Below, in pieces: positions 2,822 to 33,047 of a stretch of 61,066 nt of DNA; position 1 is the stretch's first letter, and each line of letters begins with the position of its first letter. Both the position numbers and the translations under genes were made by a program. Origin of the DNA: an uncultured Gammaproteobacteria bacterium (lineage in GTDB: Bacteria > Patescibacteriota > Patescibacteriia > UBA10025 > JAHIVO01); assembly GCA_964592105.1 (NCBI GenBank), contig CAZQBL010000017.1:1-61066 (forward strand), read 5' to 3'. Below the pieces are notes generated by a model that saw only the letters and a program-made list of their open reading frames with translations, was not told the DNA's origin and did not search any database.

Positions 2822-3747
2822 ATGTTTTTTTATGTGGTAATTTGCGGCTTGCTTTTAATTTCAGCGGCGGCAGCCGAGGATATCGCCATCATTGATTATG
2901 TTGGCGATTTTGACACCGCCGGTCAGCATATTTATCAGATGTTGAACGGTCAACAGTACGATGTGTCATATTCCCATGTCTATTATTACATGCCTTGGAG
3001 AAATCCTTCGCTTTTAATCGTTTTTACAGCGGGTGGTGAATATGAGCTTAATCAGGAACAAGTATTCCAGATTGTCGAGCACCTGAGGGGCAGCGGATCA
3101 TTAATGCTTTTTGGCGACGGAGCGCATTGGCTATCTTTATACTGGTGTGGTACTGATATTGCCACGTCCGTTGTTTATCCAATTTCGGGCTTAACAGGTT
3201 CGGGTGCTTTAGAGGGATTTTATTCGCTCTGCGAAGAAATTAATTATAATAGTATCAGCGCCTGCCCCTCGTCGGCGGTGGAGCAGAGGTAATTTTATCC
3301 GGTAATAATAATATTTGCGTTTCAAGAGGAACTGTTTACCAGGACACTATTTATGACTACAAGATGGCTGTTTTCAGCGTTTATCCGATGCACATAAATT
3401 CACTGTCGCTGTTTTTTAACATGATGATCCAGAATTACTTTCGTATTTATCCGGTCCAGATTATCGGTGATGACACAAAATCACAGTCGGCTTCTTTCAC
3501 TAATTGTTATCCTAATCCGTTTAATAGCTCCGTCAGAATTATTTATTACGCCAGCAAATCCTGCCTTGGTTCGATAAAAATATACGATTTACTTGGTCGG
3601 GAGTTAATTACTTTGCATGCAGGTCAGTTTAATACAGACCAGAATGAATTCTGGTGGCGGGCGACAGACATGCCGTCGGGAGTATATTTCTATAAAATTA
3701 CCACTGATGGTTGTTCTGTCGCGAAAAAAATGTCTTTGGTAAGATGA
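2822..3747 (+). pseudogene. frameshifted secreted protein with T9SS/Por-type C-terminal (FlgD-Ig-like) sorting domain
   Basis: Strong SD (AAAGGAGG) and signal peptide. ORF 2822-3292 joins the frame of 3364-3747 by one -1 shift near the C4 run at 3265-3268. C-terminus YPNPFN..IYDLLGRE..MPSGVYFYK..KKMSLVR. Confidence 0.75.
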
Positions 3748-6304: not shown

Positions 6305-6463
6305 CGTAATTACATAATATTCCTTAATATTTTGATTAAGGAAAACGTCTAAACATTCAATGACGTTGTAAAATCAATTATTTTAATGAGACATTAGGGC
6401 AGTGTTTTAATTTTTTCTCACTCTTCCTTTGAGGTAGTTTTTTTGGGAAGAGCGTTGTTTTTT

Positions 6464-9400
6464 ATGTTCAATTCGGAAAAAAAACGAATAGTTGAAAAAA
6501 ATCGAAAATTTTTCACCGACAGCCGTACGGCACTGAATATGCCGGACTTGATTGAAGTTCAAAAAACTTCATACCATTGGTTTCTGAAAGAAGGTCTAAA
6601 AGAATTATTTGAGGAAGTTTCGCCTATCCGTGATTTCATCGGCCGCGACCTGGAGCTGTATTTTTTGAATTATTATTTAGATGAACCGCGTTTCGACGAA
6701 CGCACAGCCAAAGCTAAAAATGTCTCTTTCGAAGCGCCGCTGCGAGTAGAGACTAAATTGGTTAACAAAAAAACCGGTGAAATAAAAGAGCAGGAAGTAT
6801 TTTTGGGTGATTTCCCTCTGATGACCGACCGTGGCACTTTTATTATTAATGGTATTGAGCGCGTAGTGGTCAGCCAGCTGATTAGATCGGCTGGCGCTTT
6901 TTTTACTTCCGAAATTATCCGCGGTCGCAGATTTTATGGCGCCAAGATTATTCCGAACCGCGGCGCCTGGCTGGAAATTGAAACCGACGCCAACAATGTT
7001 TTGTCGGTCAAAATAGATCGCAAAAGAAAAGTCGCCATCACCTCCTTGTTACGGGCTTTCGGCTTTAGCACCGATGAGCAGATCAGAGCGCTGTTTACTG
7101 ATGTTGACACCAATCCTGATAATCGCTATATCGAGTCTACTTTGGCCAAGGATGTGGCTAGGAATGAAGCCGAGGGCTTGCGCGAAGTCTACAAAAGAAT
7201 TAGACCAGGGGATTTGGCTACTACAGATAATGCCAGAGATTTAATTTATAAAATGTTTTTCAGTTTCGACCGCTATGATTTCGGGCGCGTCGGCCGCTAT
7301 AAATTGAACCAGCGCCTGGGATTAGATTTTCCCAACGACAAAGAACATCGCGTGCTGCAAAAAGAGGACTTGATCGCTATTATTAAGCAGGTAATCATCC
7401 TTAATAATGAACAGCGGGAAGCTGATGATATAGATCATTTGGGTAACAGGCGGGTTAGGGCTATTGGCGAACTGGTTCAGAATAAATTTAGAATTGGCTT
7501 AGCACGTATGGAGCGTATTATTAAAGACCGCATGAGCACTCTGGATATCAATACTTTGACCCCCAATCAACTGATTAACGCACGGCCGATTATCGGCGCC
7601 ATCAAGGAGTTTTTCATGTCCTCCCAACTTTCCCAATTTATGGATCAGACCAATCCTCTGGCTGAACTTGAACACAAGCGTCGTTTGTCAGCCATGGGTC
7701 CGGGCGGTCTTTCGCGCGAACGGGCCGGCTTCGACGTTCGTGACGTGCATCGTACCCACTACGGCCGAATTTGCCCAATTGCCACGCCCGAAGGACCTAA
7801 TATCGGTTTGGTCGGCCATCTGTCCTGTTATGCCCGGGTCAATGAATTCGGTTTTATCGAGACGCCTTTCCGCAAAGTTATACATGACGTGGAAAACAAA
7901 CCAGCCAAGACTGTCGGAGAGATTTCGCGAGTAGATATTCTTGATCCGTCCACCCAAGCTGTTTTGGTGAAAAGTGGCGAGATTATCACCGAAAATCTGG
8001 CTAAAAAATTAGCCGAACTTGATATTAAAACAATCCCGGTCAAGCCTCATGTCTCAAGAGAGATAGTTTACATGGACGCTTTTATTGAAGAGCATTATGT
8101 GACCACGGCAGCTACCACTCCTATAGACAAAGACGGTTATTTCATTGAGGAAAGAGTGGAAGTTCGTAAACATGGCGAGCCTACGTTTGATTACGTCTGG
8201 AAGGTGGATTATATGGATGTAGCTCCTTATCAGATTGTTAGTGTAACTACAGCCCTTATCCCTTTTTTGGAACATGATGACGCGGTCAGGGCTTTGATGG
8301 GCTCAAACATGCAACGTCAGTCAGTGCCTTGTATTAAGCCCCAGACGCCTTTGGTCGGTACCGGTGTGGAAACCGAAGCGGCTTGCGATTCCGGACAAGT
8401 GGTGATTAGTGAAGAGGATGGCAAGGTTACTTTTGTCGATGGTCAGGAAATTCAGGTTTTGGGTAAGAGTGGTAAACTGAGAAAATATTTATTGCAGAAA
8501 TTTGTGCGTTCTAATGCTTCGACCTGTATCAATCAGCATCCAATTGTCTCTTTGAATCAGGAAGTGAAAAAGGGTTCGGTGCTAGCCGATGGTCCTTCTA
8601 CCGACGGCGGTGAATTGGCCTTGGGCCAGAATGTGCTGGTCGCTTTCATGCCTTGGGAAGGCGGTAATTATGAAGACGCCATTCTTATTTCCGAGCGCTT
8701 GGTTCAGACCGATCGTTATACCTCCATACACATTGAGGATTATACGGTGGATGTGCGTGATACGAAATTGGGCCCTGAAGTAGTTACGCGCGATATCCCT
8801 AATATCGGCGAAGAAAAGCTAAAAGACTTGGACGAAGAGGGTATCGTCAGAATCGGCGCTGAGGTTTCCTCGGGCGATATTTTGGTGGGAAAAATTACGC
8901 CAAAAGGCGAGACTGAACTTTCGGCTGAGGAAAAATTACTTCGCGCTATCTTTGGCGAAAAAGCCAAGGACGTCAAAGACAGCTCGCTGTACCTAGAGCA
9001 TGGTGAACACGGTAAGGTGGTAGACATTAAAGTTTTTTCCCGTGAACAGGGTGATAAACTGGCTGCGGGCATCCTCAAGACCATCCAGGTTTCAGTGGCT
9101 CAGCTGCGCAAAATTCAGGTTGGCGACAAAATGGCCGGCCGCCACGGCAACAAAGGTGTGATTTCCAGGATCGTGGCGGTGGAAGATATGCCTTTTTTAG
9201 CTGACGGCACGCCGGTGGATATTATTTTGAATCCCTTGGGCGTGGCTTCGCGTATGAACATCGGTCAGATTTTAGAGACCCATTTGGGTTTGGCCGCCAA
9301 AACACTCGGCTATACCGTAGCCAGTCCGGCTTTGAATGGCGTGCCAGAGGATATAATTAGAGCCGAACTGAAAAAGGCTGGTTTTTCCAAAGACGGCAAG

Positions 9401-9865
9401 ATTGAGCTTCGTGACGGACGGACCGGCGAGGTTTTCCATAACAAAGTGACGGTCGGTTATATATATATGATGAAATTGAACCATATGGTTGAGGATAAAA
9501 TTCATATGCGCTCGATCGGCCCTTATTCCTTGGTGACTCAGCAGCCATTGGGCGGTAAAGCGCAATTCGGCGGCCAGAGATTCGGCGAAATGGAAGTCTG
9601 GGCGCTGGAGGCGTATGGCGCCGCTAATACTCTGCAGGAAATGTTGACGATAAAATCTGATGACGTACCCGGCCGCTCGCGTGCTTATGAGGCCATCATT
9701 AAAGGTGAACCCATCAAGAAACTGAATGTGCCCGAATCTTTTAACGTTCTGGTCCGCGAGCTGAAAGGTTTGTGTCTGGATGTGGAATTGATTAATGGCG
9801 CGCCGCACGAAGATTCAGAACAGAGAGGGCGTGAGAGTCAGTCTCCTAAAAAAGAGAAAAAATAA
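6464..9865 (+). CDS. rpoB: DNA-directed RNA polymerase beta subunit
   Basis: [29 protein letters not shown] and other motifs; ATG 6464 preferred over TTG 6443. Confidence 0.99.
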
Positions 9866-12800: not shown

Positions 12801-13734
12801 AGGTACTCAGTTGACCATGCGTACTTTTCACACTGGTGGTGTGGCTGGTCAGGATATCACCCAAGGCTTGCCACGTGTCGAGGAGTTATTTGAGGCCCGA
12901 CCAGTTAGGCGACCGGCGGTAATTTCTAGTGTGACAGGTAAAGCAAGGGTGGTGGAGGAGACTAAAGGTGTTAAAAAAATTGTAATCACTTATCAGTCGT
13001 CGGAGGAACACGCTTATCCGTATAAAAAGAGTAAAAAAATTGAAATTAAGGTTAAGGAAGGCGATAAAGTCCAGGCCGGACAAACTCTTTTTACTGACAG
13101 CGGCACGGAAATAAAGTCAAAAACAGACGGGTATGTTAAATTAAAGACCGGACAGGTGTTGGTTGAGTCTGAAAAAGAGAAAAAACGCGAGTACATAATT
13201 CCGCCCGGTCAGATGATCTGGATAAAAGACGGGGACCTGGTTAACAAGGGCGACCAACTTACCGACGGCAGCTTGGATTTGCATCAATTATTTTATCTCA
13301 AGGGCCAAGAAGCGGTTCAACGATATATCATTAAGGAAATTCAGTATATCTATTCTTCCCAAGGTCAGAAGTTGAACGATAAACACATAGAAATCGTTGT
13401 CAAACAAATATTCTCCCGTATTTACGTGAAAGAACCTGGTGATTCTAATTTACTGTCCGGAGAAATCGTGGAAAAAACCAAGTTCATAGAGGTCAACGAG
13501 GAAATAAAGAAAAAAGGCGGTAAGCCGGCAGTGGGCGAGCAATTGCTTTTGGGCATCACCAAAGCATCTTTATCAATTGATAGCTTTTTGTCCGCGGCTT
13601 CTTTCCAAGAAACAGCCAGAGTTTTGATTGATGCGGCCGTCTCCGGCAAAGTGGATCACCTTCGTGGTTTAAAAGAAAATGTCATTATTGGTAAACTGAT
13701 TCCGGCTGGAACCGGTTTTCAAAAAAGCTATTAA
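9868..13734 (+). CDS. rpoC: DNA-directed RNA polymerase beta' subunit
   Basis: [12 protein letters not shown] catalytic motif, Zn-finger [18 protein letters not shown]. Confidence 0.99.
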
Positions 13735-22618: not shown

Positions 22619-23338
22619 TCAAGATTTACGAGCAATAGTGATTAGGTTGAATCCCGAGTACCAGTGGGCCAGTTGACCCTTAATCGTGTAATATTGTTTT
22701 TCCACTGTAAAGCCATTTTGTGCCAGTAATGTTCGTAATTCTCCAGGCCAAAATCCGTGGATATAGCGTTTATCGACTATGCGTCCCTGTCCATCTTTCC
22801 AGAGCTTCCAGAGGCTGCCAAAATCAATGGGGATTTGCTTAAAGATTTTTTTCAGTAAAATGCGGATATGAGCTGACCACCAGCGGGGAGTCCACAGGTT
22901 CCAATTTAATAAAATGAGGTACCCGTCTTTTTTGCAGACTCGTCGCATCTCCGTCAAAGCTTGTCGGCGTAATGTTTGGCCGGCTAGATGATGCAGGGTA
23001 GCTATGCAGAATATGATATTGAACTTTTCCTCCGGAAAAGGTAAGGTAGTGATATCGCTGAAGATAAATGTACGATCAGGATACTGTTTTTTAGCGATAG
23101 CAATTAAGGCCTTGCTAAAATCAATTCCAGTATAGCTAATTTTTTTATCCCTTAGCACGTCCAGTAGCCGGCCATTACCACACCCGGCGTCCAAAAGTGC
23201 ATCGCCATCATTGACGTATGACACGATATCACGGAATTCAGACCAGGGTAGGGAACGGGTAGAAGAAAATTGTTCGGCGATAGTGTCATAGGTTCGGCGA
23301 TTTGCCTCATTAAATTTTTTCGCTGTTTCATCTTTCAT
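22619..23338 (-). CDS. class I SAM methyltransferase, Trm9/ALKBH8-like
   Basis: YDTIAEQFSSTR..PW, LDAGCGNGR, IFCIATLHHL, RRQAL.EMRRV.K.DG...L.NW, RYIH.F...EL, which parallel the Trm9 motifs. Confidence 0.8.
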   Translation of the reverse strand: MKDETAKKFNEANRRTYDTIAEQFSSTRSLPWSEFRDIVSYVNDGDALLDAGCGNGRLLDVLRDKKISYTGIDFSKALIAIAKKQYPDRTFIFSDITTLPFPEEKFNIIFCIATLHHLAGQTLRRQALTEMRRVCKKDGYLILLNWNLWTPRWWSAHIRILLKKIFKQIPIDFGSLWKLWKDGQGRIVDKRYIHGFWPGELRTLLAQNGFTVEKQYYTIKGQLAHWYSGFNLITIARKS

Positions 23339-24946
23339 ATGCCTGATTTAATTTCAAAAAAATATATTCAGGATCTGGTAAAAGCGCGTCCCGAAACTGC
23401 TGAAGATTTGCGGCAAATTAAACGCATTCTAGCAACCAAGTATAAAGTTACAATCATTACCAACGCCCTCATCTTAAAGAAATATCGACAGTATTTCAAG
23501 GGCAGATTAGACGATCGTTTACTACGTTTACTGCGTAAGCGGGAGATTCGCACGCTGTCCGGTGTAGCTCCGGTGACAGTGCTGACTAAGCCGTATCCCT
23601 GCCCGGGACGGTGCGTTTATTGCCCGACGGAGGCACGTATGCCTAAAAGTTATATTGCCACCGAACCGGCAGCCCAGCGGGCGTTTTTACTGAAGTTTGA
23701 TCCGTATAAGCAGGTTAAGGCGCGCATTGAGACTTTGGAAGCCAATGGTCACAGTGCCGATAAAATTGAATTGATTGTTCTTGGCGGCACCTGGTCTTAT
23801 TATAAAAAAAAATACCAGACCTGGTTTATCAAAAGATGCTTTGAGGCAGCGAATGACCGGAAATCGAGGACATTGGTCCAAGCACAGAAGATTAATGAAA
23901 CGGCTAAGCATCGGATTATTGGTTTAACCCTGGAAACACGGCCGGACTATGTGACTGTGGACGAATTATGGCGGATGCGGGAGCTCGGCTGCACTCATGT
24001 ACAGATTGGAGTGCAAACCCTTGACCATGAGATTCTGGATTTGACCAAGCGTGACGATTCCATTATCAATGTCGGCCGGGCAACGATGCTGCTGCGGGAT
24101 TTTGGTTTTAAACTGACCTATCACCTCATGCCCGGATTACCGGGAGCGACGCCGCAAAAAGATTTAGCAACCTTTAAAAAAGTTTTTTCCGACCCGCGAT
24201 TTCAGCCTGATATGCTGAAAATCTACCCCTGCGTGGTGGTCAAGACCGCTTTACTGTACCAGTGGTATAAAGACGGCAGATATAAACCCTACGACGATAA
24301 AACACTGACTGATTTATTGATCAAAATCAAAAAATATATTCCGCCATATGTGAGGATTAATCGTTTGATTCGAGATATTTCTGGCGATGAAATTGTGGCC
24401 GGCAATATGATTACTAATCTGCGCCAACTGTTGCATGAGCGCGGTATAGTCTGTCATTGTATCCGTTGCCGGGAAGCACGTAAAGCGATTATTAAAGAAA
24501 ACGAAACGAAATTGGTGATGCGTGCTTACCGGGCTGGACGGGGCACAGAGCATTTTATCAGTTTTGAAAGCAAGGATAAAAAGAAATTGTATGCCTTTGT
24601 CCGCCTGCGTTTGCCGGACCGGAAAAAACGGAAATTGAGCACCATGAAAGTAATTCGGTTTTTTGATAAACAAGAAATCACCATGACTGGCAATGAGATG
24701 GCTTTTGATATTGATACGGCCTTGATCCGAGAATTGCATACCTATGGCGAATTGATTCCGGTGGGCTCAAAGAAAACGGCGGTACAACATGCTGGATTGG
24801 GAAAGAGATTGTTATTGGCAGCTGAGGATATTGCGCGAAAAAAAGGGTATAAAAAAATGGCGATAATTTCCGGGGTTGGAGTGAGGGAATATTATAAAAA
24901 ATTGGGCTACAGTTTGGAACGGAGCTATATGGTAAAGAGAATATAA
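23339..24946 (+). CDS. elp3: Elp3 family tRNA uridine(34) acetyltransferase (radical SAM + KAT)
   Basis: RTLSGVAPV, CPGRCVYC, GGTW, ETRPD, QIGVQ, HLMPGLPG, KIYP, RELHTYG, QHAGLG..LL..AE, ISGVGVREYY; ATG 23339. Confidence 0.95.
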   Translation: MPDLISKKYIQDLVKARPETAEDLRQIKRILATKYKVTIITNALILKKYRQYFKGRLDDRLLRLLRKREIRTLSGVAPVTVLTKPYPCPGRCVYCPTEARMPKSYIATEPAAQRAFLLKFDPYKQVKARIETLEANGHSADKIELIVLGGTWSYYKKKYQTWFIKRCFEAANDRKSRTLVQAQKINETAKHRIIGLTLETRPDYVTVDELWRMRELGCTHVQIGVQTLDHEILDLTKRDDSIINVGRATMLLRDFGFKLTYHLMPGLPGATPQKDLATFKKVFSDPRFQPDMLKIYPCVVVKTALLYQWYKDGRYKPYDDKTLTDLLIKIKKYIPPYVRINRLIRDISGDEIVAGNMITNLRQLLHERGIVCHCIRCREARKAIIKENETKLVMRAYRAGRGTEHFISFESKDKKKLYAFVRLRLPDRKKRKLSTMKVIRFFDKQEITMTGNEMAFDIDTALIRELHTYGELIPVGSKKTAVQHAGLGKRLLLAAEDIARKKGYKKMAIISGVGVREYYKKLGYSLERSYMVKRI

Positions 24947-25210
24947 TGAGAAAAGTTTTGTTTCTTATAAGTTTTACAATAAAATACGCTACTCCGTTAT
25001 AAAGCATAGATAGAAACGAACACAAGAATAGACAAATAGAATTCAAAAACAATGCCTTGAAAAGTAAATGCTTCATGCTTCGGGGAATTAAATGATGTGT
25101 TGTATGAATTATTCAAGAAAATAACAAAATCAGGTAAAAGATGCAAAATAGTTTTATTAATTAAAAAACCGTGAATAAAATTCATTAATGGTTTTTTTGT
25201 TCGGGCGCGA

Positions 25211-25758
25211 TCAGTCACAATTATTGTTGGCGTTTTTCCACTGTTTTTCGTGCCAAATGCGGAATTCAATCGGTTTCAGGCCATTTTCGATTTTCACATG
25301 GCCTTTGAAATCATCGTGGTATTTGGATTTTTTGACCTCAATGTTGGCTTCAAAAAAGTTGTCGCAAAAAACAGTTGGTAGGACAAACTTGGCATTGTCG
25401 GCATGGTCGGTTTTTCCCCAGCGTGTATAGTTGGACAGGCAGGTCCCCATGAGAGTTCTTCGCTAAACTTGTCTCTGACGTAGAAGGTTACACGGATTTT
25501 GGCATCCTTAACCGGCTGATTGAGAGCGTCATGGATGGTGACAAAGAAAGCGGTTTTGTCCGGCATTGATTCTGGATAGTCGTACTTCACTTCCGGACGC
25601 TTGTGTTCGCCCTGGCGTCTTTTCTGTTTGGACGTGAGGTTAGATTTTTCCTGAAAGTTATTTGATTGATAGTAGTTTTGGTTCGAACCTTCGCGGGTCA
25701 GGCAAGAAAAAGCCAGGCCGGCAACTATGATTCATAGAATAGAAAAACGTTTGAACAT
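25211..25758 (-). pseudogene. degenerate lipoprotein gene
   Basis: SD AAGGAAGAGGG, then MFKRFSIL*IIVAGLAFSC (TGA at codon 9, 25732-25734; lipobox); frameshift in the G-run near 25447-25450 joins ORFs 25294-25590 and 25211-25450. Confidence 0.7.
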
Positions 25759-26104
25759 CCCTCTTCCTTGATAATAGTTGATAAAAGGTTCAGAAAAGTT
25801 CAGTTCATTGTGTATTATTTAATAATATTGTCAACTCAACTCTCTATATAGTTAATTTTGTGGGCCGGGACGAGTCTTCAAATTATATATGATTAAAGAT
25901 TTTCTGTGATGCTTGCACTTGACAAGAATACATAATTGGTATAAAAGCATAAGTAGAGACAAAAATTGAATCATTAAATAAAAAAAGGAAAAAGGAGGAA
26001 AAAGGACTTTGAAAATTGGATTCTTGAAGATTTTTAGGTTTTTTGCTGTGCGTTAAGGAAGTAAGGAAGGAAGAAATGAAGAAAATAAAGGAAAGAGGTG
26101 ACAC

Positions 26105-28423
26105 ATGAAAAAGATTACATTATTAATGTTTGTAGGGCTGTTCATGTTGATCGGGTATATAGGCATAGCGGAGGCATTGGTTTTTACAAACAGTTGCCTT
26201 TGGACGGACATTTGGGACGTCGATGTAAGCGGGGACTACGCTTATTGCATCGGACCCTATGGTTTGCAGGTGTTGAATATTTCGAATCCTGCTTTCCCAA
26301 CGCTGGTGGCAAGGCTAATGTTGCAACAAACGCCTTTGCGGGTTGGTGGTTATAACTACCTGGTAGCCACTTTTGGTATAGATGTTGAAGGCACTAAAGC
26401 CTATGTGGCAAATTGGGACGGGAACGGTCATGGTACTTTACATATTATTGACGTTAGCGATCCTTCTCATCCCCAATTATTGTCTAGCCTTAAGCGCAAT
26501 CATTATGCCAGTGATATAAAAGTTGCTGGCGGGTATGCGTATGTGGCCCAGACATACAGCGGTTTGATGGTCTATAATGTCAGCAACCCTAGTTCGCCGG
26601 TAGTGGCGGGGAGTTACCCAACTCTTTATGCTCAAGGTGTAGCACTGACCGGAGAATATGCTTACGTAGCCGATGGCAGTACTGGACTGAAAATAATAAA
26701 CATTTCAAATCCCACCCAGCCGACACTAATTGGCAATTGTGATACACCGGATGAAGCCATCAAGGTTTGTGTCCAGGGTAATTTTGCCTATGTGGCCGAT
26801 AACCGTTCGGATGGACAAAGGGCCGGCTTACAGATAATTGACATTTCCATACCAACCGCGCCTGTTATAGTCGGTAGTTTAGACACAAGATTTAATGCTG
26901 TTGATGTAGCAGTATCGGGCAATTATTGTTATGTAGTGGATATATATGACAATCTTTTGATTGTTGATGTTACTAATCCTACGGCCCCGCGTCTAATTAC
27001 CACGTTTGATGAAGTCCCTAATGTTTCCTGCAGCATAGTGCTTTCGAGTAGCCATGCTTTTGTGGCGGGTGCCATGGGAGGCGGTTTGCAGATTATCAAT
27101 GTCACCAACCCGAGCATACCGTCTCTTGTTGGTTACTACGAAACTCCGGGCCAGATTAAAAGTGTGGCTTTTAAAGGACATTATGCTTATGTGACCGATG
27201 GTTTTCAAGGAGGATTAAGGATAGTGGATGTGGTAAATCCTTATCGTCCAGTTGAGGTAGGTGCTGTCAAAACGCCGGACCAAGCCAATGATATAGCGAT
27301 CTTCGGGCATTATGCTTTTATCGCTGACAGGTATTCTGGCGTACAGATTGTGGATATTAATGATTCTGAACATCCCTTGATTGTTAGTAGTGTGTTGATT
27401 CCTGGTAGCCAGTCTTGGGCATTTGGAGTGGCCGTTTTGGGTGATTATCTCTATGTCGGCGCAACTTCGAGAGGTTTACAGGTTATTAATATCTCAAATC
27501 CTCTAGAACCAACTTTGGCTGGTTATATAGAAACTCCTGGATTAGCGGGGCGTTTGGCGGTCAAGGATAGTTTGGCGTTCGTTACTTATTGGGGGGCACA
27601 GAAGGGACTATCGATAATTGATATAACAAATCCTTACGCCCCGACACTGGTTAATAACTATCCGACGTCCAGCGGTGCCTATGAAGTAGCCGTGGATGGT
27701 AATTATGTCTATTTAGGAGGTGATGATTTCGGCCTATTAATCCTTGATGTTTCAAGTCCCGCCTCACCGATTCTAGTAGGAACATACAACAACAATCAGC
27801 AGGATATTTGGGGTATAAAAGTGCAAGGAGATTCTCTTTTCATCTCGGATATTAGTAAAGGCCTGACAATTCTGGGTATAGCAGATCGCTCATCTCCTGT
27901 ACTGCTAGACACTATTAGCACCCGTGGCCAGGCATTTGATGTCGCCGTTGGTGGTAACTTTGTGTACGTGGCTGATTTATATGGGATGTCAATTTTTTCC
28001 TTTTGTCTAGACACTGATGGTGATGGAGTGTGCGATTCATTTGACAACTGTCCAATTACTTACAATCCCAATCAGTCTGATATAAACGGCAACGGCATCG
28101 GTGATGCCTGCGAATTGTACGCTTACCTGCCTGGCGACGCCAATATGTACGTGGGTATGTGGCCACCCGCAGTCACTAGTGCTGACGTTACGTACCTAGT
28201 AGGTTATTTCCGTGGTCTCAACTATCCGTGTCTCTTGGATACATTCTTCTGTACTGCCGACATTAATGGAGATTGTCATGTAAATGGCGCTGACGTTACT
28301 AGGCTGGTGAGATATTTCAAAGGATTAAACGGGATAACCCCATGTCCTAATTATCCATCGGCTTGGCCACCTTTGCCGGATGAAGCTCCGGCTGGTTGGC
28401 CTGATTGTGAAACTTCTCGTTAG
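26105..28423 (+). CDS. secreted LVIVD-repeat (beta-propeller) protein with thrombospondin type-3 repeats and C-terminal dockerin-like domain
   Basis: Signal peptide; about 14 repeats of V.V.G.YAYVAD...GL.IIDISNP..P..VG; DTDGDGVCDSFDNCP..NP.QSD.NGNGIGDAC; duplicated GDAN..ADVTYLVGYF / ADINGDCHVNGADVTRLVRYF. Confidence 0.9.
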   Translation: MKKITLLMFVGLFMLIGYIGIAEALVFTNSCLWTDIWDVDVSGDYAYCIGPYGLQVLNISNPAFPTLVARLMLQQTPLRVGGYNYLVATFGIDVEGTKAYVANWDGNGHGTLHIIDVSDPSHPQLLSSLKRNHYASDIKVAGGYAYVAQTYSGLMVYNVSNPSSPVVAGSYPTLYAQGVALTGEYAYVADGSTGLKIINISNPTQPTLIGNCDTPDEAIKVCVQGNFAYVADNRSDGQRAGLQIIDISIPTAPVIVGSLDTRFNAVDVAVSGNYCYVVDIYDNLLIVDVTNPTAPRLITTFDEVPNVSCSIVLSSSHAFVAGAMGGGLQIINVTNPSIPSLVGYYETPGQIKSVAFKGHYAYVTDGFQGGLRIVDVVNPYRPVEVGAVKTPDQANDIAIFGHYAFIADRYSGVQIVDINDSEHPLIVSSVLIPGSQSWAFGVAVLGDYLYVGATSRGLQVINISNPLEPTLAGYIETPGLAGRLAVKDSLAFVTYWGAQKGLSIIDITNPYAPTLVNNYPTSSGAYEVAVDGNYVYLGGDDFGLLILDVSSPASPILVGTYNNNQQDIWGIKVQGDSLFISDISKGLTILGIADRSSPVLLDTISTRGQAFDVAVGGNFVYVADLYGMSIFSFCLDTDGDGVCDSFDNCPITYNPNQSDINGNGIGDACELYAYLPGDANMYVGMWPPAVTSADVTYLVGYFRGLNYPCLLDTFFCTADINGDCHVNGADVTRLVRYFKGLNGITPCPNYPSAWPPLPDEAPAGWPDCETSR

Positions 28424-28445: not shown

Positions 28446-28480
28446 CCCCCGGTTTTGAGGAAATCGGGGGCAATTTTTTA
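28446..28480 (+). terminator. intrinsic terminator
   Basis: CCCCCGGTTT/AAATCGGGGG stem plus T-rich tail. Confidence 0.6.
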
Positions 28481-32279: not shown

Positions 32280-33047
32280 CTATTGGGTAAGTTTGGCTCC
32301 GCCGGCTTTACGAGGATTGTAGCCGTTTTCTACCTCCTGGCCATCATTATAACTATCACCGTCGGTGTCGGGGTTTGTTTTATCAGTGCCGTACAGCTCT
32401 TCCTGAACATCGGTTAGACCATCGCCGTCGGTATCTAGAGTAGAAGCGTTGACGTTATTGTTGGAGTTAAGGTTAGCTGCCGTATTTTTATTGGAATTTG
32501 TGTTGTTGGTATTAGTATTAGCAGCGGCATTCACATTAGCATTAGTATTGGCGTTGTTGGTATTTTGATTAAAAATACTGTTTAGGTTCCTATTGAGGTT
32601 ATTGATATTGGTGTTAGTTGTGTTAGTATTGCCATTAGTTGTCGCATTAGTATTAGCAGCGGCATTCACATTAGCATTAGTATTGGCGTTGTTGGTATTT
32701 TGGATATAATTCAGGACCATAATAGCGCCGATAATCAGCAAAGCAATGATAGCGATTATGAGTATACCGATGATGACAATTCTTTTTTTGCCGCTTCGAG
32801 GGGGTTCTGGCGCAACCGGTCCGCCAGCTACGTTGATGTTGCGGGGAAAATTAACGGGTGGTTGTCCAGGCGCACTGCCTATGTCAGGCGTAGTGTTAAT
32901 CGGCGGCGGAATGGGACCGGCGCTTCTTGTGGGAGCGGTCGGGGCGCTTTGTCCTTGGTCCGGCTGAACTGGCCGCCAAGGCCCCCAGTCTTTTGGCTGA
33001 CTTTGTGGTTGATTTGGCTGAGTCGGGCGTTGCACGTTCTCAAACAT
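32280..33047 (-). CDS. single-pass surface protein: Pro-rich cytoplasmic N-terminus, TM, Asn/Thr/Ala low-complexity stalk, C-terminal Ca-binding DxDxDG repeats
   Basis: Translation; DTDGDGLTD..E..YGTD..NPDTDGDSY.DG.EV..GYNP. Confidence 0.85.
   Translation of the reverse strand: MFENVQRPTQPNQPQSQPKDWGPWRPVQPDQGQSAPTAPTRSAGPIPPPINTTPDIGSAPGQPPVNFPRNINVAGGPVAPEPPRSGKKRIVIIGILIIAIIALLIIGAIMVLNYIQNTNNANTNANVNAAANTNATTNGNTNTTNTNINNLNRNLNSIFNQNTNNANTNANVNAAANTNTNNTNSNKNTAANLNSNNNVNASTLDTDGDGLTDVQEELYGTDKTNPDTDGDSYNDGQEVENGYNPRKAGGAKLTQ
32511..32702. repeat. 57-bp exact direct repeat inside the Asn-rich stalk (32511-32567 and 32646-32702)
   Basis: ATTAGTATTAGCAGCGGCATTCACATTAGCATTAGTATTGGCGTTGTTGGTATTTTG occurs twice. 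Confidence 0.85.

Follow-up and report, generated by a model that had tools for sequence, protein, structure and literature searches.

The gene at positions 26105..28423 of the window, by which we mean the whole 61,066-nucleotide stretch of DNA analysed here, most plausibly encodes a secreted, fast-evolving adhesin-type protein of a Patescibacteria (CPR) bacterium, with a transferred C-terminal tail as its docking end; we give this overall explanation a probability of roughly 0.55. It would describe an intact, selectively maintained CPR surface protein whose docking end belongs to a rare family that serves elsewhere as a secretome tag in a few Zixibacteria. The tail would be the constant end, holding the protein non-covalently to a cell-envelope receptor recognised by the tag family, and the propellers the diversifying end, a variable recognition face contacting the other surface. 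We infer the docking function and the disulfides of the tail from sequence and structural model. The features on which this reading draws are listed below with their coordinates in the window, their strand and the basis of each assignment.

3364..3747, strand not given: T9SS type A sorting domain (TIGR04183, 52.1 bits against a cut-off of 23)
25211..25728, minus strand: frameshifted remnant of a small gene, marking a conserved 'segment B' (blastn; tblastn in two overlapping frames)
26105..28423, plus strand: whole gene, LVIVD double propeller, TSP3 and predicted dockerin-fold module (ORF list, Pfam, identical protein cluster P0001)
26105..26176, plus strand: Sec-type signal peptide, residues 1-24, MKK, hydrophobic core and AEA/L (read from the translation)
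26207..28006, plus strand: 14 LVIVD repeats, residues ~35-634, the hypervariable and putative binding part (Pfam, model, Foldseek, comparison with contig L001)
28010..28114, plus strand: TSP3-type calcium-binding linker, residues 636-670, one and a half units (motif, Pfam TSP_3 below cut-off)
28118..28420, plus strand: predicted C-terminal dockerin-fold module of the WPP...GWPxCE subtype, residues 672-772 (tail HMM, AF2 model, Foldseek)
28133..28216, plus strand: dockerin segment 1, residues 677-704, GDANMYVGMWPPAVTSADVTYLVGYFRG (alignments, helix in the model)
28256..28324, plus strand: dockerin segment 2, residues 718-740, ADINGDCHVNGADVTRLVRYFKG (Pfam stretch 718-739, HMM alignment to 4fl4, helix)
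28325..28420, plus strand: Pro/Trp/Cys-rich extension, residues 741-772, ending …CPNYPSAWPPLPDEAPAGWPDCETSR (conserved residues in alignments)
28446..28480, plus strand: terminator-like hairpin (consensus scan, pattern match only)

The ORF runs from ATG to stop and encodes 772 amino acids, its coordinates including the stop codon. The original prediction of an intact ORF with a signal peptide, about 14 LVIVD repeats and TSP3 calcium-binding repeats was borne out in each of these elements, the ORF being present exactly as claimed. Inspection of the N-terminus, MKKITLLMFVGLFMLIGYIGIAEA/L, suggests a Sec signal peptide, and the model places an N-terminal helix at residues 2-25. Membership in the LVIVD family (PF08309) is defined by tandem repeats of ~42 residues above the Pfam gathering cut-off, and the protein scored 377.7 bits (E=7e-116; cut-off 20.2) in 14 stretches. 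AlphaFold predicts 56 strands forming 14 four-stranded blades, with pLDDT mostly >90 over residues 35-634, and the repeats are modelled as two tandem seven-bladed beta-propellers. Double seven-bladed propellers were also the best Foldseek matches of this propeller body; PorZ-like and DDB1-like tandem propellers (5m11, 8buq) have the predicted architecture in common, and PorZ, a bacterial surface protein, likewise carries two propellers and a C-terminal domain, a generic fold likeness at 10-13% identity and a TM of about 0.5 that justifies no functional inference. One full and one half TSP3 unit, DTDGDGVCDSFDNCPITYNPNQSDINGNGIGDACE, can be read at residues 636-670, where it conforms to the Asp-rich motif DxDxDGxxDxxDNCP...NxxQxDxDxDGxGDxC; Pfam TSP_3 (PF02412) reached 17.8 bits in a single stretch (636-657), under its gathering cut-off of 25, and NCBIfam returned partial matches to MtsC and Omp28_seleno over the linker. 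The orthologue P0002 has one TSP3 unit more than the window protein, and there Pfam detects TSP_3. Reading of the 772-aa sequence revealed no TM helix, lipobox or LPXTG. The terminator-like hairpin, with an 11-bp stem, 6 G-C pairs and a T-run, begins 23 nt past the stop codon. A search for transcripts of the gene turned up no RNA run.

The predicted 'duplicated dockerin-like tail' was right in being dockerin-like and in its duplicated motif, but not in the sense of two modules: the model and Foldseek show a single module with two loop-helix segments, and a reading as two dockerins was therefore rejected. In segment 1 the calcium loop is non-canonical: it is 17 residues long, is expanded by a WPP insertion of 5 residues and lacks the Asp of position 5. 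It is followed by helix 1 (tail residues 22-31 in the AF2 model). Segment 2 has a canonical 12-residue DxNxDxxxxxxD loop (DINGDCHVNGAD) followed by helix 2 (tail residues 57-67 in the same model). The extension, residues 741-772, is family-specific and absent from canonical dockerins; its conserved residues in the alignments are C76, W83, P87, P91, W94, P95 and C97 (tail numbering). Pfam Dockerin_1 (PF00404) scored 14.9 bits against a cut-off of 22.9, in one stretch only (residues 718-739), while a tail profile searched against PDB sequences retrieved dockerins almost exclusively (best 4fl4, E=0.0095). The AF2 model of the tail (pLDDT 81, pTM 0.71) matched cellulosomal dockerins in 24 of 26 Foldseek hits against the PDB, 21 dockerin matches having a probability of 0.85-0.99, with a TM on target of about 0.5-0.8 for single-module targets and alignments spanning 54-81 columns of the 101-residue model. 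On this model the tail has the three-dimensional fold of a dockerin, and it is probably stabilised by calcium and disulfides. Type I cellulosomal dockerins (PF00404; 4fl4, 2mte, 5nrk, 2ccl) share with it the two loop-helix segments, the canonical 12-residue second calcium loop with its helix and the C-terminal position on secreted cargo, and the predicted fold superposes. In contrast to them, the tail has the WPP insertion in its first loop, four Cys and a Pro/Trp/Cys extension of ~30 residues ending in GWPxCE, and no cohesin partner, scaffoldin or carbohydrate-active cargo of the tail family came up in the sequence scanned.

We define this WPP...GWPxCE tail family here, as it has no Pfam or NCBIfam model. 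Its members are ~100 residues long and combine a WPP insert in calcium loop 1 with four conserved Cys and the CPDYPPAW...GWPxCE extension. The family is rare, with 323 proteins at E<=1e-30 among 1.84 billion representative proteins and an estimated size of about 320-600 cluster representatives, most of them unnamed metagenomic proteins; Dockerin_1 misses the tail in 10 of 10 members scanned. Named genomes with this subtype are almost exclusively a few Zixibacteria-type MAGs. Using two peptide patterns, we confirmed 200 tail stretches in species-representative genomes, the best 80 of which came from two Zixibacteria MAGs, one unclassified MAG and one short contig labelled Ignavibacteria, with no CPR genome among these 80. 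Tails like that of P0002 would escape these patterns, which are biased toward the Zixibacteria consensus, and the number of CPR carriers may therefore be underestimated. Named family members and best genome matches agree with the statement in the original prediction that this Cys/Trp/Pro-rich dockerin variant is typical of Zixibacteria; a literature search found no publication combining Zixibacteria with dockerin. Tail-only matches carried sample IDs other than that of the window's run.

In each Zixibacteria-type genome, dozens of different secreted proteins end in the tail, and the tail-rich MAGs have at least 70, at least 28 and at least 19 copies. In 77 loci with 115 tail copies, the distance to the stop codon is 0-20 aa for nearly all copies, and the ORFs that carry them range from 186 to >1450 aa; the family-wide median is 3 residues after the last WPxC, and the window tail ends 3 residues ahead of its stop. 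The cargo carries diverse Pfam domains, including proteases, beta-helix proteins and propellers, and TSP3 units often precede the tail, as in P0460, where Pfam detects TSP_3 and the TSP3-to-tail junction is the same as in the window protein. T9SS CTDs (TIGR04183) resemble the tail in being extreme C-terminal tags of ~100 aa on dozens of unrelated secreted proteins per genome, but they are Ig-like beta-sandwiches, in contrast to the predicted dockerin-type two-helix calcium module. Two home-lineage proteins, P0352 and P0357, carry an ordinary dockerin tail and a WPP...GWPxCE module side by side, and the two are therefore distinct kinds of tail. Ordinary dockerin-like tails of uncultured FCB-type bacteria (GDxNxDGxINxxDVVYLINYLFKGGPxP, twice; non-cellulosomal) occur in LVIVD(+TSP3)+dockerin proteins (P0030, P0060, L079, L081) that share the overall layout with signal peptide of the window protein. 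Unlike the window tail, these pass Pfam Dockerin_1 and are devoid of the WPP insertion, the Cys set and the GWPxCE extension, and their propellers are at most 37% identical to those of the window. Whatever the host may prove to be, the subfamily defined here is missed by current Pfam and NCBIfam models, behaves as a secretome-wide C-terminal tag and raises the question of its docking partner in Zixibacteria.

The gene itself sits in a CPR genome, as originally proposed for an episymbiont-type organism. The window's RpoB is 80-83% identical to that of MAGs labelled Patescibacteria or Kerfeldbacteria, and among its best 120 matches the named ones all belong to Patescibacteria lineages (74-83% identity), apart from two labelled 'bacterium'; RpoB thus assigns the window to Patescibacteria, with Kerfeldbacteria-labelled MAGs as the nearest named relatives. 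The gene lies between an Elp3-like gene and glyA, and the only full-length relative found is in a related CPR genome with the same neighbours: contig L001, from landfill leachate, the window being from hot springs. Flanking proteins are 84-94% identical between window and L001 and the LVIVD-tail proteins 55%; nucleotide identity falls from 82-90% in the flanks to ~65% inside the gene, and in the propeller part 50-residue windows are 42-72% identical. The insertion point of the gene also differs. Segment B, upstream of the LVIVD gene in the window and downstream of it in L001, holds a gene that is frameshifted in the window and intact (171 aa) in L001. Judged from these comparisons, the locus is recombining and hypervariable. 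A scan of metagenome contigs with the two-sequence alignment yielded only LVIVD proteins of at most 36% identity and no new CPR orthologue, recovering neither the window nor L001; the two tails read from it, L079 and L081, end in ordinary dockerins.

Against this variability stands a conserved tail. An HMM built without CPR sequences scored 145.3 bits for the window tail and 144.6 bits for that of L001, and across 118 copies its median is 164 and its 5th percentile 108, which places 145 bits at the 25th percentile. The window retains 37 and L001 36 of the 38 columns conserved at >=90% in the family, and the conserved family residues (PGDANM, WPP, DVTYLV, four Cys and GWPxC) are present in the window tail; of the 59 variable columns, by comparison, 36 have different residues in the two CPR tails (Fisher p=7e-8). 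By sequence, both CPR tails are consensus-like family members in which substitutions avoid the conserved columns, and the gene has the profile of a fast-evolving secreted protein with a constant tail and a variable remainder. Most of what is conserved serves the fold, namely Ca ligands, helix core, Cys and Pro/Trp, and the retention of these positions shows that the fold has been kept but not that the ligand is still the same.

Where the receptor of such a docking end would reside is a matter on which we lean slightly toward a neighbouring (host) cell with the tag system over the CPR cell. Tentatively, and at odds clearly below even, the CPR protein may copy the secretome tag of its host and be captured on a Zixibacteria-type envelope, where it would bridge to or mark the host, the shared tail then pointing to the host lineage. 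This would suit a tail family otherwise restricted to Zixibacteria-type genomes that each tag dozens of proteins, the consensus-like state of the CPR tails, the lack of a cohesin-like partner in the CPR sequence scanned (window and L001) and a second FCB-type element, the T9SS sorting domain, in the same window. A precedent is found in the cultured CPR epibiont Southlakia epibionticum, a Saccharibacterium, in which dockerin-domain and other adhesins are essential, among them the dockerin-domain envelope protein SEML1_0315, required for epibiotic growth (PMC10633639). SEML1_0315, implicated in host interaction, resembles the window protein as a CPR surface protein with a dockerin-type domain, a likeness by description and not by sequence, since it belongs to another CPR class and has Actinomyces as host. 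We know of no claim that its dockerin originated in the host lineage, and a literature search found no publication linking CPR to Zixibacteria hosts. Against capture by a host tag system stand the habitat of CBFDEC, the sole tail-rich genome with a traceable one (marine or subsurface sediment, not hot springs; Gpa_9 gave no match in an index of sequencing runs), and the conservation of the tail, which fold-level constraint alone could explain. Moreover, docking on the host alone would not by itself keep the CPR cell in place; for that, the propellers would need to bind the surface of the CPR cell. We consider it rather unlikely that the tail is an address label for an envelope receptor specific to one Zixibacteria lineage and that the CPR bacterium took over this host tag for adhesin capture, and we treat host identity and docking onto cohesin-bearing cells, both suggested in the original prediction, as hypotheses. 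To our knowledge, hosts are unknown for nearly all CPR members and no general sequence-based host prediction exists. Should the tail bind an envelope receptor of Zixibacteria, it would name a candidate host lineage; were the takeover of a host tag true, shared lineage-specific C-terminal tags would offer sequence-only host prediction for uncultured CPR, and the T9SS sorting-domain fragment would be another sign of that donor group.

Doubtful, in our estimation, is the opposite orientation, in which the tail attaches the protein to the CPR envelope through a receptor of its own genome and the propellers reach out to a host, a substrate or a mineral. Dockerins in all experimentally characterised systems known to us attach proteins to scaffoldins or to the surface of the cell that makes them; the sequence shows no alternative anchor, and the fast-evolving part of the protein is the propellers, as expected of an outward-facing end. 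Yet neither the 61-kb window nor L001 offered a cohesin or other candidate receptor, the tail is single-copy whereas such systems usually serve several cargo proteins, and the CPR bacterium would also have had to acquire the receptor. The check for self cohesins that had been proposed was negative as far as it went: Pfam on selected ORFs of the window, a 61-kb part of the CPR genome, and jackhmmer with a single query (the P0049 cohesin region) against a 790-kb six-frame translation found none, both being weak tests. A cohesin-like stretch in P0352, a visual impression, was rejected because Pfam gave it no support. The protein also differs from components of cellulosome-type complexes, its cargo being a binding propeller and not an enzyme, and neither a CAZyme nor a scaffoldin with cohesins occurred in the window ORFs scanned. 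If the tail does anchor to the CPR cell itself, the gene would represent an ordinary domain transfer into a variable surface protein.

Returning to the transferred docking end, the tail is likely foreign and of Zixibacteria-type origin, because Zixibacteria-type MAGs carry many copies each and the window and L001 a single one apiece; it is from this copy-number asymmetry that we infer the direction of transfer. As the subtype otherwise forms a shared C-terminus in a few Zixibacteria-type genomes, the TSP3-tail block most likely entered the CPR lineage by horizontal transfer, where it would have been fused to an LVIVD propeller or have arrived with one; since then the gene would have been kept in its recombining, hypervariable locus. 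Capture of a host or neighbour surface module, as first suggested, is supported in part, by the likely foreign tail, but not as a recent capture of the whole gene, given that the landfill CPR contig has it between the same neighbours. Transfer of the whole gene from Zixibacteria was considered and is unsupported: the LVIVD propeller occurs in 0 of 178 tail-family proteins and in 0 of the 115 copies in 77 loci, one unrelated neighbouring gene excepted. The gene's GC3 is 0.40 against 0.48±0.03, and base composition is uninformative about origin because the candidate donors share the window's GC of ~44%.

That no transfer into CPR took place, the module being old in both lineages, having passed from CPR to Zixibacteria or having reached both from a third, unsampled lineage, we judge unlikely. 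Such histories gain some room from a neighbour-joining tree of 148 tails, in which the CPR tails were exclusive sisters in 5 of 100 bootstraps and which cannot tell one acquisition from several, as well as from the bias of the scan patterns, the many unnamed family members and the occurrence of LVIVD with ordinary dockerins in many uncultured bacteria. They are opposed by the concentration of subtype copies and cargo diversity in a few Zixibacteria-type genomes, by the single copy in CPR sequence and by the named relatives of tail or propeller, none of which is CPR.

It is very unlikely that the tail is functionless baggage, a Zixibacteria sorting or secretion signal persisting as an inert remnant in a CPR protein in which only the propellers matter. 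Its strict C-terminal position on diverse cargo does resemble that of sorting domains such as T9SS CTDs, and a probably non-functional T9SS CTD fragment lies in the same window. This fragment had been predicted in a gene at 2822; a real T9SS sorting domain is indeed nearby, but it is located in the next ORF, 3364..3747, and ORF 2822..3292 has no Pfam or NCBIfam family match. We know of no T9SS machinery in CPR cells. An inert remnant would, however, hardly keep 36-37 of 38 conserved positions in both CPR alleles despite 45% overall divergence, with substitutions avoiding those columns; the ORF is intact with its own terminator-like hairpin, and the predicted fold is that of a binding module, the dockerin, and not of an Ig-like CTD.

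A gene mis-joined to the CPR contig or derived from a contaminating organism, to which a break of the independent (Logan) assembly within the gene at 26440-26469, unequal depth on its two sides (58 versus 73) and the lowest GC3 among the window's long genes might point, is effectively refuted, as each junction of the gene with its flanks falls within a single contig of that assembly, free of mismatches, and the second assembly, from another habitat, has the same CPR neighbours around the gene, which together exclude the chimera that the original prediction had asked to be checked. Identical fragments were present in two further hot-spring runs.

The LVIVD gene (26105..28423, forward strand) encodes a secreted protein that joins a variable double propeller to a conserved dockerin-fold C-terminus, here called the tail, which belongs to a tag family that is not native to CPR bacteria. 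The reading frame spans 772 aa, in agreement with the original prediction of an intact surface-protein gene, and a terminator-like hairpin lies 3' of its stop codon. By eye, the N-terminus looks like a Sec signal peptide (MKK, a hydrophobic core and AEA/L). Pfam counts 14 LVIVD repeats (E=7e-116), matching the roughly 14 predicted, and a full-length AlphaFold model built with 35 homologues places 56 beta-strands in residues 35-634, mostly with pLDDT >90. The best structural matches of this model are tandem seven-bladed propeller pairs such as DDB1, UTP WD40 pairs and PorZ. The proposed TSP3 repeats are plain by eye as one and a half calcium-binding units in residues 636-670, but at 17.8 bits they fall below the Pfam cut-off of 25. 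Residues 629-736 (27989..28312), the TSP3-plus-dockerin region, align with the last 107 positions of NCBIfam NF045500 (Omp28-related selenoprotein; E=1e-12, far below the family cut-off); that curated family thus ends in a TSP3-dockerin block of similar kind.

The tail, the C-terminal ~100 aa of a WPP...GWPxCE subtype, is a dockerin by its modelled fold and not by the Pfam sequence criterion, which it fails (14.9 bits, cut-off 22.9). Searched with a profile built from the tail plus 40 relatives, PDB sequences gave almost exclusively dockerins (best 4fl4, E=0.0095). The AlphaFold model of the tail (pLDDT 81, pTM 0.71) consists of two helices with a loop before each, and cellulosomal dockerins accounted for 24 of its 26 Foldseek matches (probability up to 0.99, TM on target 0.6-0.8). 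Loop 2 (DINGDCHVNGAD) is canonical, loop 1 carries a five-residue WPP insertion, and the second helix is followed by a ~30-residue Pro/Trp/Cys-rich extension with a terminal GWPxCE, an extension that solved dockerins lack. The tail family conserves four cysteines, which would form two disulfides. A duplicated dockerin-like tail had been proposed; two related segments are indeed present in the last ~100 residues, but they make up a single module, and the duplicated reading was rejected.

A search with the tail alone returned matches of 50-64% identity, the named ones only from candidate division Zixibacteria. Scanning GTDB genomes, one for each species, confirmed 200 tail stretches, of which the best 80 fell in the Zixibacteria MAGs Gpa_9 and CAXXKA, in CBFDEC (an unclassified MAG) and in a short contig labelled Ignavibacteria, with no Patescibacteria among them; the scan used two peptide patterns, and since the tail of P0002, the LVIVD orthologue on a landfill CPR contig, matches neither, the count of CPR carriers may be too low. 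When 1.84 billion representatives were searched exhaustively with a profile, only 323 proteins passed E<=1e-30 and 601 passed E<=1e-10, the few named ones again being Zixibacteria. The statement in the original prediction that this Cys/Trp/Pro-rich dockerin variant is typical of Zixibacteria is therefore correct.

Fetched flanks contained 115 tail copies, nearly all 0-20 residues before the stop codon, in ORFs of 186 to >1450 aa and often in adjoining genes. Counted as lower bounds, three MAGs carry at least 70, at least 28 and at least 19 copies. The cargo is diverse and includes beta-helix, CarboxypepD_reg, SBBP and PQQ propellers and FG-GAP repeats, as well as papain-type and subtilisin-like proteases. 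The Pfam dockerin model detected the tail in 0 of 10 scanned family proteins, and neither Pfam nor NCBIfam has a model for the subtype. Judged from its sequences, the tail subtype is rare and lineage-restricted and forms a C-terminal tag across the secretome. Some proteins of the home lineage (P0352, P0356, P0357, P0359) bear between two and four WPP-type tails, in part at internal positions, along with an ordinary Pfam-positive Dockerin_1, with both module types in one protein. The nearest tail matches are Zixibacteria proteins of ~195 aa (P0136, P0138, P0139, P0141 and L094 3919..4503) in which a signal peptide and a short 'YxIDWYVIGSGGG...GTIGQP...GFW' domain precede the tail and nothing else is present.

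Scored with a tail HMM built without CPR sequences and referred to 118 genuine copies, the two CPR tails reach 145 bits each, the 25th percentile of the 118, and retain 37 and 36 of the 38 columns conserved at >=90% in the family. They differ from each other at 3 of the 38 conserved columns versus 36 of the 59 variable ones (Fisher p=7e-8), a pattern that shows purifying selection on the predicted tail fold. The conserved positions are mostly structural, so that the same ligand as in Zixibacteria does not follow from their conservation. Both CPR tails have a Zixibacteria-type copy closer to them (0.67, 0.69) than they are to one another (0.60), but the tail tree does not resolve the branching.

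RpoB (6443..9865) is 80-83% identical to that of MAGs labelled Patescibacteria group or Candidatus Kerfeldbacteria, and the named matches in its top 120 are all from CPR lineages except two labelled only 'bacterium'. The remaining genes of the window are housekeeping genes (metK, Mur ligase, rpoBC, ftsK, recA, plsX, glyA, folD, parts of uvrABC, groEL), and its DNA is present in three hot-spring metagenomes. No LVIVD propeller was found in 178 tail-family proteins or 115 locus copies, and the one near a tail locus belongs to an unrelated neighbouring gene. Uncultured bacteria outside the CPR commonly combine LVIVD propellers with an ordinary dockerin tail, in some cases with TSP3 units as well (P0030, P0060, L079, L081). 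The nearest non-orthologous propeller relatives are at most 42% identical (one match 44%, over less of the protein), with no CPR-named organism among them. In the tail-family protein P0460 a TSP3 array runs into the tail through the same junction as in the LVIVD protein, and in several top tail matches half a TSP3 unit still precedes the tail. Read most economically, the LVIVD protein would be a mosaic of a Zixibacteria-type TSP3-tail block and an LVIVD double propeller, put together in the CPR lineage itself or in a donor not yet sampled.

P0002 (56% identity), the only full-length relative, lies on the 16-kb contig L001 from a landfill leachate well, which shares with the window the neighbours plsX, HAD, PGM, DUF8173, methyltransferase, Elp3-like radical-SAM and SHMT. 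Between the two, flanking proteins are 84-94% identical and flanking DNA 82-90%, against 55% for the LVIVD protein and ~65% for its gene, which is alignable only in part. In the window, a conserved segment of 690 nt precedes the LVIVD gene, within a 1.16-kb 'intergenic' stretch; in L001 this segment is downstream of the LVIVD gene. It contains a small gene:

25211..25728, minus strand: frameshifted copy of the small gene, in two overlapping frames
L001 13101..13616, minus strand: intact 171-aa version of the same gene

Segments A and B, both conserved, adjoin each other in the window (24982..25835) and in L001 enclose the LVIVD gene (9601..9780 and 13042..13724); the insertion points of this gene thus differ between genomes whose flanking genes are ~90% identical. 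The divergence of the gene, the moved 690-nt segment and the frameshifted small gene mark the locus as hypervariable and rearranging, which is what diversifying selection or allele replacement would be expected to produce at a surface-protein gene. The Elp3-like protein (23270..24946, plus strand; radical SAM, Radical_SAM_C and GNAT acetyltransferase) is 91% conserved in L001. Beside the locus, a SAM-dependent methyltransferase (22619..23338, minus strand) is 52.5% identical to its L001 counterpart, all other neighbours being at 84-94%, and on this comparison is a second apparently fast-diverging or replaced gene in the neighbourhood.

The tail would act as a calcium- and disulfide-stabilised docking module that holds the protein on an envelope receptor; the propellers would present a diversifying recognition face. 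Epibiotic growth of a cultured Saccharibacterium requires a dockerin-domain protein (PMC10633639), a precedent for a role in cell-cell contact. The suggestion in the original prediction that the tail could dock on a Zixibacteria-type partner cell is an attractive hypothesis, since only that group otherwise carries the tag and the CPR sequence, which covers only 61 kb of the genome, shows no partner for it. However, no cohesin or receptor for the tail is known from any lineage, and the traceable tail-rich genome comes from marine or subsurface sediment; self-anchoring of the tail on the CPR cell is about as likely. The original observation is confirmed and its interpretation partly supported; the analysis describes a dockerin subfamily outside cellulosomes that also occurs across a phylum boundary, in a surface protein of a CPR bacterium. 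The LVIVD protein offers a specific and cheap experimental test of the CPR-host hypothesis, in which the host link is so far hypothesis only.

A chimeric assembly, which had been named as an objection, is rejected, as Logan, an independent assembly of the window's own run, covers both gene-flank junctions with no mismatch and L001 has the same neighbours; recent capture is rejected by the presence of P0002 between those neighbours in a landfill CPR contig. Logan's only break is a 30-nt overlap within the LVIVD gene (26440..26469, depths 58 vs 73), which suggests strain-level variation or a repeat-induced branch.

A second feature of FCB type lies near the start of the window:

3364..3747, plus strand: T9SS type A sorting domain (TIGR04183, 52.1 bits against a cut-off of 23) in the C-terminal 75 of 127 aa
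2822..3292, plus strand: upstream 156-aa ORF with a signal-peptide-like start, in another frame

A T9SS sorting-domain gene had been placed at 2822; the domain is found nearby, but it sits in the ORF 3364..3747, which has no signal peptide and no cargo domain, and 2822..3292 has no family match. By sequence, the two ORFs look like a broken FCB-type secreted-protein gene in a CPR genome, which is not known to carry a T9SS. Elsewhere in the window, a 254-aa protein (32280..33047, minus strand) has a bacterial TSP3 repeat at 23.8 bits against the Pfam cut-off of 25 and weak NCBIfam similarity to the myxobacterial cell-cohesion and gliding proteins MtsD and CglD, and may be another calcium-binding surface protein.
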